DNA of 64,000 nucleotides from an uncultured Candidatus Saccharibacteria bacterium. GTDB taxonomy: Bacteria > Patescibacteriota > Saccharimonadia > Saccharimonadales > JACDBH01. The notes under the pieces were generated by a model that saw nothing but the letters and a program-made list of their open reading frames with translations, had not been told where the DNA came from and ran no database searches. The position numbers and the translations under genes are program-made. Positions 1,168 through 52,832 of this stretch are shown in pieces. Each line of letters opens with the position of its first letter. The stretch's first letter is position 1. The DNA lies in contig CAZXYN010000002.1 in the NCBI GenBank assembly GCA_964644965.1, positions 67,075-131,074 of the forward strand, given 5' to 3'.

Positions 1168-1244
1168 CGGGGTGTGGCGCAGTTGGCTAGCGCGCGCGGT
1201 TTGGGACCGTGAGGTCGAAGGTTCGAGTCCTTTCACCCCGACCA
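1168..1244 (+). tRNA. tRNA-Pro (anticodon TGG)
   Basis: Cloverleaf by eye: acceptor CGGGGTG/CACCCCG, D-arm GCGC-AGTTGGCTA-GCGC, anticodon loop TTTGGGA, T-arm GAAGG-TTCGAGT-CCTTT, encoded ACCA. Coordinates cross-checked against ORF 1209..1445, which reads through it. Confidence 0.9.
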
Positions 1245-1252
1245 ATCAAAGA

Positions 1253-1277
1253 GTCCGGCTTTATGCCGGGCTTTTTG
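1253..1277 (+). terminator. intrinsic terminator after tRNA-Pro
   Basis: CCGGC-TTTAT-GCCGG hairpin followed by GCTTTTT. Confidence 0.6.
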
Positions 1278-1404
1278 ATTGGATATGGTAGAGGGCTCGA
1301 ACCGATAGGCATAAATGTCCAGTGGACATTTATGTTTTCCTTGCTTGGCCGAGAAAATGATTTATCACTTTTCGAGCAACTAGTTCGAGTCCTTTCACCC
1401 CGAC
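1278..1404 (+). repeat. tRNA-flanking element P, ending in a 22-nt copy of the tRNA-Pro T-loop-to-acceptor end
   Basis: 1383-1404 (GTTCGAGTCCTTTCACCCCGAC) is identical to 1221-1242 inside tRNA-Pro. The body holds an inverted T-loop box (GGTTCGAGCC on the minus strand). It also holds the core TCGAACCGATAGGC-hairpin-GTTTTCCTTGCTTGGCCG (1297-1351), which is shared with the element at 23448-23502. Confidence 0.7.
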
Positions 1405-1587: not shown

Positions 1588-1821
1588 TAACACTTGAAGT
1601 ATAGAAAAATTACGGTGTAAATAGTACAATCGTGATAAGCGTTTAACGCCTAGACCTAAACCAAGCAATTGGCATGGTTGATAAATCCATAGAGAAATAA
1701 AAGCTCGTCATGAGTCGCTATTTCTCTATGGTCGGTACTGGAAACGGTATCGGGTAGCTTCGGCTATCGCTCGTGGCGGGCTTTTTATATAGCATCACAA
1801 CTACCTGAAAGGAGATAAGGC

Positions 1822-2376
1822 GTGCAAGCATTAAGGTCAATCGGGAGCACTCTACTGGGTATTGTTATTTTCGTCGGAATTATTATTGCAACAGTTTTGC
1901 TGTTTACTCTAGGTGCTAGATTAGCATTTACTATTCAGCCATTTATCAACTGGCTTGCTGGCGTTCTGTTTATCATAAATATTGTAGCGTTGATTGTGGC
2001 AATAGCGCCAAAAGCAAGGGGCTGGTCTGGTCTGATAATCTACATTTCATCTTATGTATATGGACTAGGAACATGGATTTTCGGTTTAGCGGTTACTCTG
2101 GCGCTCTGGGGCTGGATAGCAGTTATCATTGGTCTTCTTTTGGGTGGTGTCGGTGTTGTACCTATCGGCATGTTGGCCGCAATACTCAACGGAGAGTGGG
2201 GGATATTCTGGACGTTGTTCATAAGTCTAGCTCTGACTTATGGGGCACGTCTAATAGGCACGCTACTAGTGTCCAGTGCTGAAAACCAGCCACATTATGA
2301 TGGAGACGATGTTAGTGATGATGTTATTGACATAGAACCAGGAACACATAAACGAACATGGAAGGACATTGAGTAA
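1822..2376 (+). CDS. multi-pass membrane protein, unknown function; C-terminus ends KRTWKDIE
   Basis: ORF track, 184 aa. GTG start with GGAGA about 9 nt upstream. About 5 hydrophobic helices and an acidic tail. Confidence 0.65.
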   Translation: MQALRSIGSTLLGIVIFVGIIIATVLLFTLGARLAFTIQPFINWLAGVLFIINIVALIVAIAPKARGWSGLIIYISSYVYGLGTWIFGLAVTLALWGWIAVIIGLLLGGVGVVPIGMLAAILNGEWGIFWTLFISLALTYGARLIGTLLVSSAENQPHYDGDDVSDDVIDIEPGTHKRTWKDIE

Positions 2377-2675
2377 TGACCAAAGAAGCTGACGAGAAAC
2401 ATACGCATAACCAAAACAATGCAGAGTCGCCTAAATCAAGCGTTAGTTCTTTTATTCATGTAGCTGGCTTTGCGGGTGGTTTTTTAATTGGTTTTAGGCT
2501 ATTAAATAACTTAATCATTGGGATAGTTCTTGGAATAATTGGAGGAATTATTACCTCCGGAATTTGGGCATTGTTTACTGATAAAGCAGAGAATGGTACG
2601 AAAAAGCATGACGCCGAAAAAGAAACAATAAGCGAGGGTGAAAGTCAAAGACGAACGTGGAAGGACGTTGAATAA
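2376..2675 (+). CDS. small membrane protein, unknown function; C-terminus ends RRTWKDVE
   Basis: ORF track, 99 aa. Its ATG overlaps the upstream stop (TAATG). Glycine-rich TM pair. Confidence 0.6.
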   Translation: MTKEADEKHTHNQNNAESPKSSVSSFIHVAGFAGGFLIGFRLLNNLIIGIVLGIIGGIITSGIWALFTDKAENGTKKHDAEKETISEGESQRRTWKDVE

Positions 2676-2676
2676 T

Positions 2677-3894
2677 ATGGACATGCCACATACAAAGTTA
2701 CGCCAAAAGTATATTGACGAAATCAAGGTTATTGAGGCGAATATCAAAGATATAGCTAGTGGTGAAGCACCGCAAGCATTGTATGAACACTCACAAAATA
2801 AGCTGGATAAGTTAGCAGAGCATTTTCAGTACGATGAACAGCTCGGAACCGCTAGGTACAAGCTCTATGAACTGCAAGCACTCTTGTATTACTTCCAGAA
2901 CAGAGATGATGACGCATTGGCATTTATACTGCAAGCCGTTGAAATCAAAGGCTCCTCATATAAACGGGCCGAACAACTCATAGCACAGATAGATTCAGCT
3001 CCGGCGGAGAGCCATAACTGGGATAATTATCTGGACCACAATGAAACACCGGCAATAACTAGAGCGAATAGTAACCAGAGGGTCGTATTTTTTCATAAAT
3101 CACCATTAACGGTGGCGTTACTATCATTCATTTCACTCGGGTTATATTCCATATATTGGTCGTATAAACACTGGAAGATTATTCAAGACAGCAAGGGCAA
3201 TAAGCCAGCCTATACAGGTTGGTGGCATTGGGGAGGTAAGTTTAGTGAAAACAAAAGAACATACCCAGTTTGGGCTGCTATTTTCCAGTTATTCTCAATC
3301 TACCCCCTCTTTAAATTGATAAAAATTACGGCTCAAGAGAGTGGCTATGAAAAATTTCGTAAGACGAAGTTTACTGCAACTGGCTACATTATTTTATCCG
3401 CTGCCGTCAACGCTACATGGAGAGCAGAACCAAAGACTACCACTGATTTTGTAACATTTATAATATTCATGGTTCTAATGGGAGCATGTATAGCAGTAAT
3501 ACTGGCTATTGTACAACGTGCAGCGAATGCGCAAAACATATCTGTGCTTGGTAAGCGGCACAAGTTCAAGAGTGTGTTTGTGGGTGAAGTAATCTTTACC
3601 ATTATTGCAGTTGGTTTCAGTGTGTTGGCCATTATTGGTACATACAGCTCAGTCGGCACGGTAGGTTACGAAGGTTTAAGTAACGAAGCAATGGGTGCAT
3701 ATCAGAGAATGGAATCGTTGCGAAGCCAGTATAACGCATGTAGTAGCGACTTGGACGCAAGGCGTGATAACGTTAATATTTATAGCGATTATGAGGTTGA
3801 TTCCTTTAATAGCGACCTGGAAGATTGTGAGAACACAAGACTTAGATTGAACAGCACAGTAGATGAATACAACAGACTTGCGGGGTATGAGTAA
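2677..3894 (+). CDS. membrane protein with helical N-terminal domain and DUF4234-like GLYSIYW transmembrane region
   Basis: ORF track 2638..3894. I prefer the internal ATG at 2677 (MDMPHTK...), just after the upstream stop. Motif LSFISLGLYSIYWSYKHWKII plus further TM helices and an acidic C-terminal domain. Confidence 0.6.
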   Translation: MDMPHTKLRQKYIDEIKVIEANIKDIASGEAPQALYEHSQNKLDKLAEHFQYDEQLGTARYKLYELQALLYYFQNRDDDALAFILQAVEIKGSSYKRAEQLIAQIDSAPAESHNWDNYLDHNETPAITRANSNQRVVFFHKSPLTVALLSFISLGLYSIYWSYKHWKIIQDSKGNKPAYTGWWHWGGKFSENKRTYPVWAAIFQLFSIYPLFKLIKITAQESGYEKFRKTKFTATGYIILSAAVNATWRAEPKTTTDFVTFIIFMVLMGACIAVILAIVQRAANAQNISVLGKRHKFKSVFVGEVIFTIIAVGFSVLAIIGTYSSVGTVGYEGLSNEAMGAYQRMESLRSQYNACSSDLDARRDNVNIYSDYEVDSFNSDLEDCENTRLRLNSTVDEYNRLAGYE

Positions 3895-8251: not shown

Positions 8252-8406
8252 TATGGGGCGAGTGATGGGAATCGCCCACATTCTGCGGGCCCGAAACTTC
8301 ACGGTGTGAAACAAGTTTCACCCGGAAGGTTTCCTTGCGAAATGCCACAGGCATTTCTCACCCACGACCTTAGGCGTGGGTTCAAGTTCCATTGACCAGC
8401 CCATAA
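8252..8406 (-). repeat. tRNA-flanking element H, ending in a 23-nt copy of the tRNA-His 3' end
   Basis: 8252-8274 is identical to 8439-8461 (T-loop CGATT through CCA plus 2 nt). 8361-8371 repeats the tRNA-His variable/T-stem segment at 8464-8474. An ~86 nt hairpin-rich insert lies between these two pieces. An inverted, well-formed T-arm/acceptor/CCA-like end (GTGGG-TTCAAGT-TCCAT-TGACCAG-C-CCA) lies on the plus strand at about 8374-8403. Confidence 0.7.
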
Positions 8407-8429
8407 ACAAAAAACGACCCTTTGGGTCA
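8407..8429 (-). terminator. intrinsic terminator after tRNA-His
   Basis: Read on the minus strand: GACCC-AAA-GGGTC followed by TTTTTTG. Confidence 0.65.
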
Positions 8430-8440
8430 TTTCTTATTTA

Positions 8441-8518
8441 TGGGGCGAGTGATGGGAATCGAACCCACGACCTTCGGAACCACAACCCGACGCTCTAACC
8501 AACTGAGCTACACCCGCC
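8441..8518 (-). tRNA. tRNA-His (anticodon GTG) with encoded G-1 and CCA
   Basis: Reverse complement is G-GCGGGTG TA GCTC AGTTGGTTA GAGC G TCGGG TTGTGGT TCCGA AGGTC GTGGG TTCGATT CCCAT CACTCGC C CCA. Coordinates cross-checked against ORF 8434..8718. Confidence 0.9.
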
Positions 8519-10010: not shown

Positions 10011-10169
10011 ATTGGTACCCCGGGAGGGAATTTGACTCACAAGTCAAAATGCTCTGCATTTTTGCTCGCGAGCCCGGCGCGGCGTGCATCGGGTGCCGAT
10101 GCACAGGCCTTACGCCTGTTCGATTCCCCGCAGGCCAAGCAGTTGGCCTGCTGTCTCTGGGTACCAATT
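10011..10169 (-). repeat. tRNA-flanking element R, ending in a 21-nt copy of the tRNA-Arg(TCT) 3' end
   Basis: 10011-10031 is identical to 10199-10219 (ATTCCCTCCCGGGGTACCA plus 2 nt, read on the minus strand). The GC-richer body has several hairpins (TGCATCG-GGTGC-CGATGCA; ACAGGC-CTTA-GCCTGT; CAGGCCAA-GCAG-TTGGCCTG). It also has an inverted T-loop box TGTTCGATTCC and a plus-strand ...GGGTACCA end. Confidence 0.7.
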
Positions 10170-10193
10170 CAAAAGCCCCACTTTCGTGAGGCT
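10170..10193 (-). terminator. intrinsic terminator after tRNA-Arg(TCT)
   Basis: Read on the minus strand: AGCCTCAC-GAAA-GTGGGGCT followed by TTTTG. Confidence 0.6.
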
Positions 10194-10200
10194 CATGAAT

Positions 10201-10277
10201 TGGTACCCCGGGAGGGAATCGAACCCCCGACCTGTGGGATAGAAGCCCATTGCTCTAATCCGCTGAGCTACCGGGGC
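10201..10277 (-). tRNA. tRNA-Arg (anticodon TCT)
   Basis: Reverse complement is GCCCCGG TA GCTC AGCGGATTA GAGC A ATGGG CTTCTAT CCCAC AGGTC GGGGG TTCGATT CCCTC CCGGGGT A CCA. Coordinates cross-checked against ORF 10032..10292. Confidence 0.9.
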
Positions 10278-10461
10278 GTCGTCGAAGTGTGATGGTGAGA
10301 TAATCCTAGTAGCGACAAAAAATTTGCTCACTACTAGTAATTATCTCACTAAGCCTTCTCCTCTCAAAACCCCAAACAGCAGCCAGCTGCTTGGTTTGGT
10401 GTTTTGTGCAAGAACATTCCTTAACAGGGGTGATTATACCATGTTATAACTGTTATTGTAA
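10278..10461 (-). promoter_or_regulatory. promoter plus conserved structured leader of the tRNA-Arg(TCT) unit
   Basis: On the minus strand: TTACAA (10456-10461), 17 nt, TGGTATAAT (-10 at 10433-10438), then CACCCCTGTT. Leader modules are ACCAAACCAAG-hairpin-TGTTTGGGGTTTTGAGAGGAGA (about 10353-10402), a long hairpin with loop GCAAATTTTTTG (about 10295-10349), and CACTTCGACGAC abutting the tRNA. Confidence 0.55.
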
Positions 10462-23269: not shown

Positions 23270-23385
23270 GCAACACTCCTTTTACATTACTTATCTAGTA
23301 TATACCCAGTGCTGAGAATACGCATAACAAATTAGCTAACAATACTACCAATGAAAAAACCGGTCACAAGGACCGGCGCTTTCAT

Positions 23386-23508
23386 TGGTACACCCGGCAG
23401 GATTCGAGTTATTCTGCGCCTGGCTAAAATGCAAGCATTAGCCGAGGCGGCCAAGCAAGGAAAACTCGGATACCCACTGGGTATCCTCGCCTATCGGTTC
23501 GAATCAAT
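23386..23508 (-). repeat. tRNA-flanking element A2 behind tRNA-Arg(TCG), ending in a non-identical tRNA-like 3' end
   Basis: Read on the minus strand it ends ...CTCGAAT CCTGC CGGGTGT A CCA (23386-23408). 23448-23502 is the reverse-strand equivalent of the tRNA-Pro element core 1297-1351: the 14-nt and 18-nt flanks are identical and the hairpin differs by paired changes on both strands of the stem. Confidence 0.65.
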
Positions 23509-23554
23509 CAAAATAAAAGTGGCGGTATAACGACAAAAGTCATTAGACCGCCAC
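23509..23554 (-). terminator. intrinsic terminator abutting tRNA-Arg(TCG)
   Basis: Read on the minus strand: GTGGCGGT...ACCGCCAC followed by TTTTATTTT. Confidence 0.6.
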
Positions 23555-23630
23555 TGGTACCCGCGGAGAGATTCGAACTCCCGACTTTCTGGTCCGAAGC
23601 CAGACGCTCTATCCACTGAGCTACGCGGGC
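23555..23630 (-). tRNA. tRNA-Arg (anticodon TCG)
   Basis: Reverse complement is GCCCGCG TA GCTC AGTGGATA GAGC G TCTGG CTTCGGA CCAGA AAGTC GGGAG TTCGAAT CTCTC CGCGGGT A CCA. Confidence 0.9.
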
Positions 23631-28282: not shown

Positions 28283-28345
28283 ACCTTAATTTAACCATGA
28301 ATGAAAAAAGACCATAAAATGGTCTTTTTAAGCATAACTAGTATG

Positions 28346-28525
28346 GGAGGGCCAGGAGGGACTCGCCTTGCGACAATTCAAAAATATAATTGTTAACGCA
28401 ACCCTTTGATATGCCATTGGCATATCACGGGCAGGGTGCGGGGAATGCTCCAAGCATTCCCGTTCAAGTCCCTTCCTATCCACGTACCATATAAAAAATG
28501 CCACCACTTGGTGACATTCTTTATA
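28346..28525 (-). repeat. tRNA-flanking element K (includes the proximal terminator), ending in a 20-nt copy of the tRNA-Lys 3' end
   Basis: 28346-28365 is identical to 28527-28546 (CGAGTCCCTCCTGGCCCTCC on the minus strand); one extra C then precedes the final CA. The body has hairpins GATATGCCA/TGGCATATC and GGGAATGCT-CCA-AGCATTCCC, an inverted T-loop box CGTTCAAGTCC, and a plus-strand ...CACGTACCA end. The proximal terminator (28493-28516) pairs with a G-U only when read in tRNA sense. A second terminator lies at about 28300-28330. Confidence 0.7.
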
Positions 28526-52430: not shown

Positions 52431-52832
52431 GGGGCTGTTTAGCTCGACATTTGGACATTTACAAGTTGGTATAAGCAGGCCGGTAGTCTGAACGTTATCC
52501 GGACAAACCTTCTAACTGCAAACGCATTAGATCGCGTACAAGCTATGTTCAATGACGCCTTTGGTATCAAAGAACGTGCTTTCGCAACAGCTGCCTAATT
52601 TTAGTGTAGCGACTGTTAGTTCGACATCAGATAGAACAAATCAGTCTCATATTTTTCTGATTGCTTAAATATTACGACCCGTAATGTTTACTAAGACTTA
52701 TAGGGTTGCAGCGATGGAATTTTTTGTTGATTTCTATCTTTCATAGCTAAAGAAACCAAGCAAATCAAATAAGCCTGTAGAAACCCAGCAAGTAACCGAA
52801 TGGACGCGGCTTCATCGCCGCCAGCTCCACCA
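52431..52832 (+). ncRNA. ssrA: tmRNA (SsrA)
   Basis: 5' GGGGCTG... pairs with 3' CAGCTCC-A-CCA. T-arm GCGGC-TTCATC-GCCGC. The tag reading frame 52518-52598 encodes ANALDRVQAMFNDAFGIKERAFATAA*. Promoter TTGCAT (52368-52373), 17 nt, TACAAT (52391-52396). Coordinates cross-checked against ORF 52800..53519. Confidence 0.85.

Follow-up and report, generated by a model that had tools for sequence, protein, structure and literature searches.

A conserved, structured non-coding insert family at Saccharibacteria tRNA genes: a possible mobile element of the T-loop

Introduction

Two tRNA genes in a 64,000-nucleotide stretch of DNA (the window) from an uncultured Candidatus Saccharibacteria bacterium are followed by short elements in which identical flanks enclose a hairpin of differing sequence. 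What is this element, and what ties it to tRNA genes? Saccharibacteria genomes are about 1 Mb in size, and their tRNA genes are typically single-copy. An initial annotation, based on the letters of the window, read the pair as the mark of selection on a folded RNA or on a palindromic protein-binding site. That annotation covered part of the element: the core continues past it, with a second hairpin that also covaries and then a GCA paired with the UGC of the shared 18-mer. The whole core lies inside an insert linked to a tRNA gene and bordered by a second copy of the tRNA 3' end.

In what follows, E denotes the core, I the decayed inverted copy of the T-arm and 3' end, B' the near-exact direct copy of the tRNA 3' end, t the terminator and B-t the tRNA 3' end with its terminator. 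E is the core (approx. 90 nt) of an apparently undescribed family of non-coding inserts at Saccharibacteria tRNA and tmRNA genes. No published description of it was found in the literature searched, which included a paper on group I introns in Patescibacteria tRNAs.

The element in the window

The 14-mer TCGAACCGATAGGC and the 18-mer GTTTTCCTTGCTTGGCCG are exact at both loci where the initial annotation had placed them (table 1). No further site for the 14-mer was found in the window with up to two mismatches allowed, nor for the 18-mer with up to three, and two matches to the 18-mer occurred in 0 of 100 shuffles. The hairpins also read as described, ATAAATGTCC-AGT-GGACATTTAT in the Pro copy and GA-GGATACCC-AGT-GGGTATCC-GA in the Arg copy. 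Pairing is kept between the two stems; the statement that nearly every stem position differs was too strong, as six of 10 do in a common 10-position register. The two outer positions of the Arg-copy H1 are G·A/A·G, not Watson–Crick. Hairpins of the same kind, previously noted after tRNA-His and tRNA-Lys, are present, and the His hairpin is matched by the covariance model at E=2e-4.

At the Pro locus, A/T tracts and CCA/TGG extend the palindrome of the terminator into I, and the terminator resembles the terminator part of several Rfam models. The core-proximal part of I, GGGCUCGAAC, pairs with 1383-1394 to give helix P1 in the minimum-energy fold. Within the 18-mer, UUGC pairs with GCA(A) at 1376-1379 and UUGGCC remains an internal loop. 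B' of the Arg copy does not match the adjacent tRNA-Arg(TCG); judged against comparison loci L021 and L025, it is the 3' end of another tRNA-Arg allele, of ACG/GCG/CCG type. The tRNA-His insert ends with a 20-nt repeat of the tRNA-His 3' end (8254-8273). For the tRNA-Lys(CTT) repeat, a 17-nt probe matched at 28348-28364 and the identity was read as 19 nt. Such inserts follow five of the seven tRNAs in the window. E is absent from Gly-TCC and Glu-TTC there and present at both in other genomes, a patchy distribution.

A gathering scan of the window with Rfam 15 returned tRNAs, tmRNA and LOOT only, with E unmatched; a scan of 1240-1420 at E<10 gave just terminator-like partial matches of at most 18 bits. 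The LOOT motif lies 250 nt from E. LOOT is one of the TM7 motifs reportedly described in Weinberg 2017.

Table 1. Coordinates of the tRNA-linked inserts and their parts in the window.
Feature	Position	Strand	Basis or detail
tRNA-Pro(TGG), intact	1168..1244	+	ARAGORN; Rfam tRNA, 63.6 bits; positions 53-74 repeated at 1383-1404
Terminator hairpin t after tRNA-Pro, CCGGC-TTTAT-GCCGG then T-run	1245..1279	+	read from sequence
I, decayed inverted copy of tRNA 3' end (TGG...GGGCTCGAACC)	1280..1303	+	sequence reading, minimum-energy fold
14-mer: antisense T-loop TCGAACC, GATA loop, then GGC (T-stem 5' strand remnant + C)	1297..1310	+	
Hairpin H1, 10 bp, apex CC-AGU-GG	1311..1333	+	covariation at all 10 pairs
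Conserved 18-mer GUUUUCC-UUGC-UUGGCC-G	1334..1351	+	
Hairpin H2 region and closing GCA (1376-1378)	1352..1378	+	model R1 match 1307-1380, 72.2 bits; pair counts
Short linker, core to tRNA repeat	1379..1382	+	
B', direct repeat of tRNA-Pro positions 53-74 (GTTCGAGTCCTTTCACCCCGAC)	1383..1404	+	
tRNA-His insert	8254..8440	-	terminator, inverted T-arm copy, H1-type hairpin 8337-8359, different middle, ...CGCAGAAT
tRNA-Arg(TCT) insert	10013..10200	-	repeat of tRNA 3' end at 10013-10032
Second terminator t' after B' of Arg copy	23350..23385	-	terminator scan
Linker GAATAAC and B' (TCGAATCCTGCCGGGTGTACCA)	23386..23414	-	
H2 of 'class 2' type (CCTCGGCTAATGC-TT-GCATTTTAGCCAGG) and closing C-GCA	23415..23447	-	model R1 match 23413-23492, 58.4 bits
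Second 18-mer copy	23448..23465	-	
Arg-copy H1, tandem G·A at base	23466..23488	-	
Short I remnant (GATTGATTCGAACC) and GATAGGC	23489..23509	-	contains second 14-mer, 23489-23502
Terminator hairpin after tRNA-Arg(TCG)	23511..23554	-	read from sequence
tRNA-Arg(TCG), intact	23555..23630	-	ARAGORN, Rfam
tRNA-Lys(CTT) insert	28343..28525	-	H1-type hairpin 28407-28427, then exact repeat of tRNA 3' part

Fold and covariation

In tRNA sense, the fold consists of H1, the joining segment formed by the 18-mer, and H2 closed by UGC/GCA. Two tandem G·A/A·G motifs flank H2 in most family members. Compensatory double changes occur at 20 of the 23 pairs. Paired cells make up 79.8% of the total against 57.3% in shuffles, and double-change cells number 406 against 110. 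The covariation score of 0.477 (0.129 shuffled) was reached by none of 500 shuffles, and in slid registers the score was at most 0.10. Selection on the fold of E is strongly supported by this covariation. Had the two window copies been the only ones, with unpaired stem changes in any further homologues, recent duplication and chance would have sufficed. The 18-mer is instead widespread, and further homologues carry paired substitutions: all 10 pairs of H1 covary across 82 distinct sequences.

G:U outnumbers A:C by 45 to 13 (p=3e-5, not corrected for phylogeny), and owing to this excess the fold is read on the tRNA-sense strand of the usual layout. For the Pro copy, the fold z-score is -5.1 on the sense strand versus -3.3 on the antisense strand. 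Strand-specific wobble together with the tandem G·A motifs argues against a symmetric double-stranded protein site, so that of the two readings offered initially, selection on a fold stands and the palindromic protein site loses ground. Compensatory changes above controls, with wobble favoured on one strand, are the pattern of a structured RNA. Folded single-stranded DNA gives the same pattern, and for E the tRNA-sense strand could be folded as RNA or as single-stranded DNA. The idea that the H1 loop CCAG forms a kissing interaction with UUGG of the 18-mer was dropped, since the 18-mer is fixed and variants of the H1 apex show no covariation with it.

Could H1 and its U-run be a plain intrinsic terminator, or the pair the product of chance or recent duplication? 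A scan tool did flag the Arg-copy H1 with the following GAGUUUUCCU as terminator-like. Against this, just four U follow H1, and conservation and covariation extend 45 nt beyond, through H2 to GCA; chance or duplication is confronted with more than 150 copies in more than 50 species. Downstream conservation and copy number refute either as a full explanation, and we consider them scarcely credible.

Junctions and layouts at tRNA genes

The usual layout begins with an intact tRNA gene. This is followed by (i) a terminator, (ii) I, (iii) E, (iv) a linker, with a family mode of 5–8 nt, and (v) B', a near-exact copy of tRNA positions 56-76. The modal exact match of B' to the tRNA 3' end is 21 nt long, counted from C56, and the junction is sharp, in the T-loop at 55|56. 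The junction is spanned by the T-loop/T-stem sequence G53-C62, which is near-universal and to which the 5' flank of E, GGAYUYGAACC, is complementary. Both tRNA-derived flanks, inverted and direct, are specific to their locus and vary in length.

B' is approximately 95% identical to the tRNA, while I has decayed to 67% identity with the tRNA complement family-wide, against 57–60% in shuffled controls. I matches the local tRNA at its T-loop/T-stem part only, in an ungapped comparison. A test for RNA-level selection on long I gave 37 wobble-preserving versus 24 disrupting transitions, with 81 transversions, and no clear signal. From these two results, the long I:B' helix is not conserved, and just 7–12 bp beside the core are. 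RNA duplex energies for own versus swapped flanks (-23.7 versus -20.6 kcal/mol) differ little in a measure biased towards G:U, and this comparison was set aside for both reasons.

A census of 115 copies placed 77 (67%) downstream of a same-strand tRNA, with nine, seven and five in three other layouts. In the reversed layout, the order is tRNA, linker, antisense E and repeat, without a terminator, and the tRNA CCA is directly followed by the antisense of E. E can also lie upstream of a tRNA or within a split tRNA pseudogene, and one copy has no tRNA context; one old tRNA-Met is split by a new tRNA with E. Arrays of two or three units occur; E subfamilies differ within them, and truncated older units are included. 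Some B' copies are fossils of other tRNA alleles.

Several features recall known integrative elements. A tRNA repeat from T-loop to 3' end flanks the insert, tandem arrays form, tmRNA 3' ends are used as well as tRNAs, and 5'-side variants exist. These are reportedly the classic features of integrase targets set out in Williams 2002. The copies might therefore be leftover attachment sites of prophages or islands that were integrated at the T-loop by a tyrosine integrase and lost their interior, with E as a phage att arm. At one locus (L010), a 216-aa ORF separates the tRNA from the t-I-E-B' unit. The ORF has no Pfam or PADLOC match and 14 homologues, in Saccharibacteria only; two have an rve transposase or a serine recombinase nearby but no E, and the lead was dropped. 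With these cargo-ORF homologues unlinked to E, other points also weigh against attachment remnants, which we judge decidedly improbable. No integrase or larger island accompanies E at approximately 190 loci containing the 18-mer, and phage and plasmid BLAST searches and a viral-contig scan yielded no real E copies. Insert size is tight, at about 140–190 bp, one family would need more than 20 tRNA specificities, and double-stranded att arm sites would lack strand-specific wobble and G·A patterns.

A retro-type element is another candidate. RNA of E would be copied by a distant reverse transcriptase and inserted by target- or tRNA-primed synthesis; I, which begins with TGG directly after B-t, would resemble a primer-binding site, and the direct repeats, which vary from 9 to about 60 nt in length, would be target duplications. 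One-strand selection on the fold agrees with this scheme, as do the presence of B-t on both sides in young copies and the reversed layout, in which antisense E directly after CCA is what tRNA-primed cDNA would give. Yet in most copies I is no more complementary to the local acceptor stem than expected at random, and no reverse transcriptase gene was seen near any copy among the ORFs around approximately 70 loci. CCA is genome-encoded in these tRNAs and hence carries no retro signature. The dominant layout, moreover, has E in tRNA sense, which requires an antisense template or a structured strand that is the cDNA. On balance a retro-type origin is unlikely.

E could also be the guide RNA of an RNA-guided nuclease or transposase, either a TnpB/Cas12-like reRNA or a single-strand IS200/IS605-type miniature. 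The scaffold would then be E and the guide the 21-nt B' after it; GGTT of the T-loop would be the adjacent motif, with the element 3' of GGTT. TnpB guides are positioned 3' of their scaffold and IS200/IS605 elements 3' of their target motif; the motif recognized by Cas12k is GGTT, and homing to tRNA genes is known for type V-K transposons. Consistent with such a guide, a conserved scaffold stands at a fixed distance from a sharply bounded tRNA-gene match that is preceded, in the tRNA gene, by GGTT; at the Pro locus the insert starts approximately 58 bp downstream of that motif. One strand carries two subterminal imperfect hairpins. As E itself lacks terminal inverted repeats and shows no obvious short target duplication, it differs from MITEs, which are derivatives of DDE transposons, and breakpoints fall in cloverleaf loops (55|56, 33|34 and 44|45). 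The left junction, however, is usually GG(T)C, not GGTT. The final bases before B' are poorly conserved, hairpin sequences are free to vary between genomes, the target would be the cell's own essential tRNA gene, and no tnpA/tnpB-like ORF with these ends was found across the approximately 190 loci. We regard a guide function as very unlikely.

Distribution and signs of movement

The 18-mer was found at approximately 70 Saccharibacteria loci in a species-representative genome set while 120 metagenome loci yielded about 94 real copies of it, and the covariance model recovered 86 copies in 72 sources. Copies of E per genome are few, about 2–8 as seen. The metagenome loci involve 22 tRNA species. 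In genome loci the 18-mer lies about 85–100 nt past the same-strand tRNA end at many tRNA species. A 3'-end repeat was present at 52 of 122 tRNAs in genome loci, a biased sample since these loci were fetched for holding the 18-mer. It lies 138–186 nt downstream of the tRNA in 49 of the 52, with three outliers at up to 275 nt.

E sequences group by genome, not by tRNA locus. Outside the 18-mer, copies at different tRNAs of the same genome are 73% identical (median). Between genomes, identity is 39% at the same tRNA and 40% at different tRNAs, so that there is no locus signal (73% versus 39%, p=4e-5). When the tRNA-Pro locus of the window is compared with that of a related genome, homology breaks off precisely where the terminator meets I, and the two loci carry different E subfamilies. 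No pair of empty and filled sites was seen in close strains, where the sole same-strain contigs are 100% identical to the window.

Clustering of 1118 ORFs around approximately 70 loci gave syntenic housekeeping clusters only, and no enzyme family near E. Pfam assigned the 24 window ORFs scanned to housekeeping families or to none, and no integrase, transposase, TnpB or reverse transcriptase was among them. No full-length autonomous relative was found at the approximately 190 loci.

The main rival to mobility is an RNA that serves the host. E with its B' tail and anti-T-arm flank would be a non-coding RNA, made by read-through of the tRNA terminator. It would act on tRNA biology, for example by mimicking the tRNA 3' half or acting as its decoy, by contributing to processing or quality control, or by offering proteins a K-turn-like platform to bind. 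Gene conversion, or co-evolution with a protein partner, would account for uniformity within a genome. Much of the evidence agrees with such a role: purifying selection on the fold is strong, with wobble tolerated on the tRNA-sense strand; the 18-mer is exact in more than 50 species; B' is kept while I decays; linker length and distance from the tRNA end are constant; two-thirds of copies are alike in orientation and position after a tRNA; and the inserts are located among core genes. Other observations are hard to reconcile with it. A strong terminator cuts E off from the tRNA promoter, no conserved upstream promoter was seen, and a promoter scan found no sigma-70-like promoter upstream of either window copy. 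E also occurs antisense, upstream of tRNAs, in split pseudogenes and once away from tRNAs, presence at a given tRNA type is patchy between genomes, arrays hold truncated older units, and similarity among E copies carries zero locus signal. A host-serving RNA is accordingly a serious contender, if a rather unlikely one.

A T-loop-homing element

The best explanation, for which we put the case at about even, is a non-autonomous element that homes to the T-loop and needs a single-strand fold (RNA or single-stranded DNA) for its spread. A possible course of events is as follows. (i) E would be the moving, or converting, part of the element. (ii) The complementarity of its 5' flank to the near-universal T-loop/T-stem sequence across the junction would allow one element type to use any tRNA or tmRNA gene. 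(iii) Each insertion would bring a replacement or duplicated tRNA 3' end and terminator, so that the tRNA stays functional. (iv) Repeated insertions would shift older copies downstream. (v) Machinery encoded elsewhere would recognize the conserved fold as a single strand, be it RNA or DNA. Candidate chemistries include small-circle site-specific recombination, single-strand transposition and reverse transcription.

Certain observations sit less easily with mobility. Genome-wise similarity could arise without transposition, by gene conversion through flanks that derive from the T-arm or by co-evolution with a partner specific to the genome. Preservation of B' next to a decaying I could mean selection on B' for a host function. 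The model leaves the source of locus-matched tRNA 3' ends at more than 20 tRNAs unaccounted for. To our knowledge, an 18-mer exact in so many species is also unusual for selfish DNA.

A bolder version of the homing element is doubtful. In it, E is a mobile nucleic acid that encodes no protein and is directed to its target by pairing of GGAYUYGAACC across 55|56, and a host or distant enzyme (reverse transcriptase, single-strand transposase or recombinase) inserts it, duplicating the tRNA 3' end and terminator.

Relation to known systems

Several known systems share part of this design. T-loop tyrosine-integrase islands and CIMEs have in common with E the T-loop-to-CCA repeat, the rebuilt tRNA beside the insert, tandem arrays, use of tmRNA and 5'-side variants. 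E inserts differ in being small and geneless, in having no integrase-bearing parent that was found, in the range of tRNA species served by one family, and in the strand-specific covarying fold with its adjoining inverted T-arm copy.

The PATEs of IS200/IS605 and REP/REPIN sequences are likewise short and non-coding, with imperfect hairpins on one strand, likeness within genomes and families that differ between genomes. Both depend on a single enzyme gene elsewhere. Unlike them, E is strictly tied to tRNA T-loops, has a 21-nt tRNA repeat and an 18-nt non-hairpin segment shared across species, and is low in copy number; no Y1 transposase was found.

Integron attC and CTX phage attP sites resemble E in placing structure over sequence, in strand asymmetry, in arrays built at a fixed site and in lacking a gene within the unit. 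The central region of E, by contrast, is conserved in sequence, and its target is a tRNA gene. We know of no integron-type integrase in the Saccharibacteria setting of E. The TnpB reRNA and the Cas12k homing crRNA also combine a structured scaffold with a tRNA-matching segment of about 20 nt and GGTT 5' of the match; E differs in that no nuclease or transposase genes were found with it, and by a much shorter scaffold, unconserved guide-adjacent bases and many layouts. Bacterial motifs in Rfam 15, such as LOOT, are similarly supported by covariation, intergenic, RNA-like and confined to one phylum, but apart from terminator look-alikes no family matches E at E<10.

Significance

Many Saccharibacteria tRNA genes carry these inserts, five of seven in the window and 52 of 122 in loci selected, with bias, for the 18-mer. 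Their repeats have practical consequences, as assemblies break inside tRNA genes and spurious ORFs are called; the covariance model from this analysis can be used to annotate them. The fossil tRNA ends that they leave are a record of past tRNA replacement. We know of almost no regulatory RNA in the phylum, and if the inserts serve the host they would be a new class of tRNA-linked RNA. If they are mobile, they would show how selfish DNA can settle in essential single-copy genes and spare the host, through the replacement 3' end and terminator that it supplies, and there would be a new T-loop-directed insertion chemistry to seek. Should the base-pairing reading prove true, these would be miniature elements of a new class that carry a guide, home to tRNA genes and are confined to the reduced Saccharibacteria genomes.

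The elements of the window

The window is a segment of a Saccharibacteria chromosome rich in core genes (Mur ligases, SHMT, PGK, TIM and MetRS), and its RNA genes are seven tRNAs, a tmRNA and a LOOT RNA. Five of the seven tRNAs (Pro, His, Arg-TCT, Arg-TCG and Lys) share one downstream series of parts. (i) The tRNA is followed by a terminator hairpin. (ii) An insert of about 100–130 nt opens with I, an inverted and diverged copy of the tRNA's 3' end (TGG...GGAYTYGAACC). (iii) The segment of the tRNA from T-loop to 3' end then recurs as a direct repeat (B'). (iv) A second terminator usually closes the series. The Gly and Glu tRNAs of the window lack such a series.

The Pro and Arg-TCG inserts have an 18-mer in common, which lies within a core, E, of about 90 nt: hairpin H1, the 18-mer, hairpin H2 and a closing GCA. 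A 14-mer adjoins H1 on its 5' side. The initial annotation held both flanks to be identical in the two copies, and they are exactly so; neither has another near-match within the 64-kb window. Its description of the stem was partly overstated: the hairpins read as claimed and pairing is kept, but 6 of 10 positions, rather than nearly all, differ in the common register, and two basal positions of H1 in the Arg copy are G·A/A·G. The His and Lys inserts do carry the same kind of first hairpin with a different middle, as does the related Arg-TCT insert. The public assemblies L001–L005, 100% identical to the window and of the same strain, are the only strain-level contigs; they end inside two of these tRNAs, where assemblers were probably confused by the repeated tRNA ends.

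Positions of features in the window and in two loci fetched from elsewhere
Feature	Position	Strand	Remark
14-mer, Pro copy	1297–1310	+	
18-mer, Pro copy	1334–1351	+	
LOOT RNA (RF03000, 75.7 bits)	1653–1768	+	250 nt downstream of tRNA-Pro element
Terminator	1767–1781		Downstream of LOOT RNA
Three ORFs	1822–3894		Follow terminator; no significant Pfam/PADLOC match, sub-threshold only
Ends of L001–L005 contigs	8461–8470; 10249		Inside tRNA-His and tRNA-Arg(TCT)
86-aa ORF (gene-finder call)	10032–10292	+	Across tRNA-Arg(TCT) and insert, opposite strand; almost certainly spurious
B' after Arg(TCG) element	23386–23407	−	Acceptor CGGGTGT
18-mer, Arg copy	23448–23465	−	
14-mer, Arg copy	23489–23502	−	
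tmRNA gene	52431–52832	+	Neither repeat nor element downstream
216-aa ORF, locus L010	751–1452		Between tRNA-Leu(TAG) and a terminator-I-E-B' unit
Split tRNA-Met, locus L096	about 130–400 (flipped)		

Family size and distribution

The initial annotation allowed that only these two copies might exist anywhere. The 18-mer alone retrieved 83 loci from a species-representative genome set, about 70 of them in Saccharibacteria/Saccharimonadia MAGs, where one genome often holds several copies; the remaining 13, from other phyla, have no hairpin and are due to chance. A metagenome scan for the 18-mer yielded at least 120 loci, about 94 of them real among the matches listed. The finding is real, and much larger than is visible from the window sequence alone. 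In most loci a same-strand tRNA ends about 85–100 nt before the 18-mer. The genome loci involve many tRNA species, and the metagenome matches listed at least 22; tmRNA 3' ends also serve as sites and bear the element in many other genomes (e.g. loci L008, L109, L116, L127, L131 and L168). At Gly-TCC and Glu-TTC, E is present in other genomes and absent from the window.

No Rfam family matches E, and no copy was found in phage, plasmid or viral collections. No protein family recurs among the neighbours of the roughly 70 genome loci, the 24 window ORFs scanned include no mobile-element enzyme, and no conserved promoter was found upstream of E. The literature searched holds no description of the element, which to our knowledge is undescribed.

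The fold of the core

The structure was derived from a seed alignment of 17 similar copies, in which 13 of 23 pairs have double changes. H1 comprises 10 pairs with the apex CC-AGU-GG and is followed by the joining segment GUUUUCC. UUGC pairs with GCA(A) past H2, and UUGGCC forms a 6-nt internal loop. H2 consists of G·A/A·G, two Watson–Crick pairs, a second G·A/A·G and a variable stem. A covariance model, advised in the initial annotation, was built (R1); the window copies score 72 and 58 bits, and its search recovered 86 copies in 72 sources. Across 82 distinct sequences, in an alignment fitted to R1 and hence biased toward the structure, 79.8% of cells are paired (57.3% in shuffles), double changes occur in 20 of 23 pairs, double-change cells number 406 (110 in shuffles) and the covariation score is 0.477 (0.129 in shuffles), a value reached by 0 of 500 shuffles. 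Slid registers score at most 0.10, and H1 was recovered independently by MAFFT/RNAalifold.

G:U exceeds A:C by 45 to 13 in Watson–Crick-type columns (p = 3e-5, not corrected for phylogeny) and by 24 to 3 in H1 alone. The three G·A/A·G sites are replaced by Watson–Crick pairs in some other copies, and the Pro copy has a folding z of −5.1 for the sense strand, against −3.3 for the antisense. The strand that folds is thus the tRNA-sense one, either as RNA or as single-stranded DNA. Selection had been proposed to act on a folded RNA or a palindromic protein-binding site; covariation and the G:U excess uphold the fold, whereas a symmetric double-stranded protein site is unlikely.

Junctions, layouts and evolutionary pattern

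B' is sharply bounded. Its exact identity to the tRNA 3' end runs from C56 for a modal 21 nt (range 16–28), and it starts 5–8 nt beyond the R1 model end, after the closing GCA. Median identity to tRNA positions 56–76 is 95%, with 18 of 55 copies perfect. I is only 67% identical (shuffled controls, 57–60%); in ungapped comparison its resemblance to the local tRNA is confined to the T-loop/T-stem part, and its substitutions show no clear wobble bias. The constant part beside H1 is the antisense T-loop GGAYTYGAACC, which complements G53–C62, a stretch that spans the 55|56 junction, and forms helix P1 with the beginning of B'. Some B' copies represent another allele than the tRNA now adjacent (window Arg-TCG; locus L019) and are fossils of earlier states. 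The B' of the window Arg(TCG) locus matches the 3' end of another tRNA-Arg type, which implies that the tRNA gene there was once replaced.

The survey of layouts covered 115 distinct copies for which at least 300 nt of context was available. E lies downstream of a same-strand tRNA in 77; the upstream tRNA is on the opposite strand in nine; a same-strand tRNA follows E in seven (5' tRNA fragment, E, full tRNA) and an opposite-strand tRNA in five. These sum to 98 rather than 96, as two copies have tRNAs on both sides. No tRNA was called for 19, many of them tmRNA ends. Where an opposite-strand tRNA follows, the order in tRNA orientation is tRNA-CCA, a 20–35-nt linker, antisense E and a repeat of 45/52–76, with neither terminator nor I. 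At L096 an old tRNA-Met is split into 1–33 and 45–76; the two pieces enclose a complete new tRNA-Met, set within the inverted repeats CCGAAGTAAG/CTTACTTCGG, as well as one E in antisense orientation. Two- or three-unit arrays occur (L016, L017, L049, L052, L033 and L019); in some of them the E subfamilies differ and older repeats are truncated. Most breakpoints lie in loops of the cloverleaf (55|56, 33|34 and 44|45).

The B' of L010 is an exact 20-nt copy of the tRNA-Leu(TAG) 3' end; the family of its 216-aa ORF is limited to Saccharibacteria, and homologues at other sites neighbour an rve transposase (CP065013.1) or a large serine recombinase and have no linked E. At L085/L190 the one copy that lacks any tRNA context is flanked on both sides by the 9-nt direct repeat AACCTGTAA, inside a short tandem repeat; this may be a target duplication. 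At L192 the 5' end of an antisense tRNA-Pro is directly adjoined by two E copies in tandem. The element of L060 lies downstream of a tRNA missed by ARAGORN, and the upstream sequence suggests that a group I intron interrupts this tRNA, an arrangement reported for Patescibacteria (PMC13011429).

Outside the 18-mer, E copies at different tRNA loci of one genome have a median identity of 73%, against 39% for the same tRNA type in different genomes (p = 4e-5) and 40% for different tRNAs in different genomes. E thus follows the genome rather than the locus, whereas B' and I are specific to their locus. At tRNA-Pro(TGG) the window is 88% identical to a related genome over tRNA and terminator; the homology ends exactly at the terminator|I boundary, where the E subfamily differs.

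A candidate T-loop-homing element

The main rival reading is a host-serving RNA kept uniform through conversion or partner co-evolution. That B' and the 18-mer are highly conserved suits it, but the terminator in front of E, the layouts with antisense E or a split tRNA and the patchy distribution do not, and we consider it improbable. The sharp junction in the T-loop, the arrays and fossil tRNA ends, the alternative orientations, the occurrence at tmRNA genes, the patchy occupancy and the homogeneity within genomes are features of mobile or recombining DNA rather than of a dedicated tRNA trailer. Since the single-strand fold is strongly selected and the 18-mer exact, we say that the core has to act as folded RNA or single-stranded DNA. 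These two sets of features together favour a non-autonomous, T-loop-homing element, a reading we hold with about even confidence. Its closest known kinds include miniature non-autonomous elements and T-loop-class tRNA integration sites, from both of which E differs in defining features. For the chemistry there are four candidates: a small circle [B-t-I-E], where t is the terminator, could integrate by a Campbell-type or site-specific route; a single strand could insert 3' of GGTT in IS200/IS605-like fashion; reverse transcription could be primed by the target or by tRNA; or an RNA-guided enzyme could use E and B' as scaffold plus guide. Under the T-loop-homing reading, the fold of E would be recognized by machinery encoded elsewhere, and insertion would bring or duplicate the tRNA 3' end and terminator, so that the tRNA stays intact.
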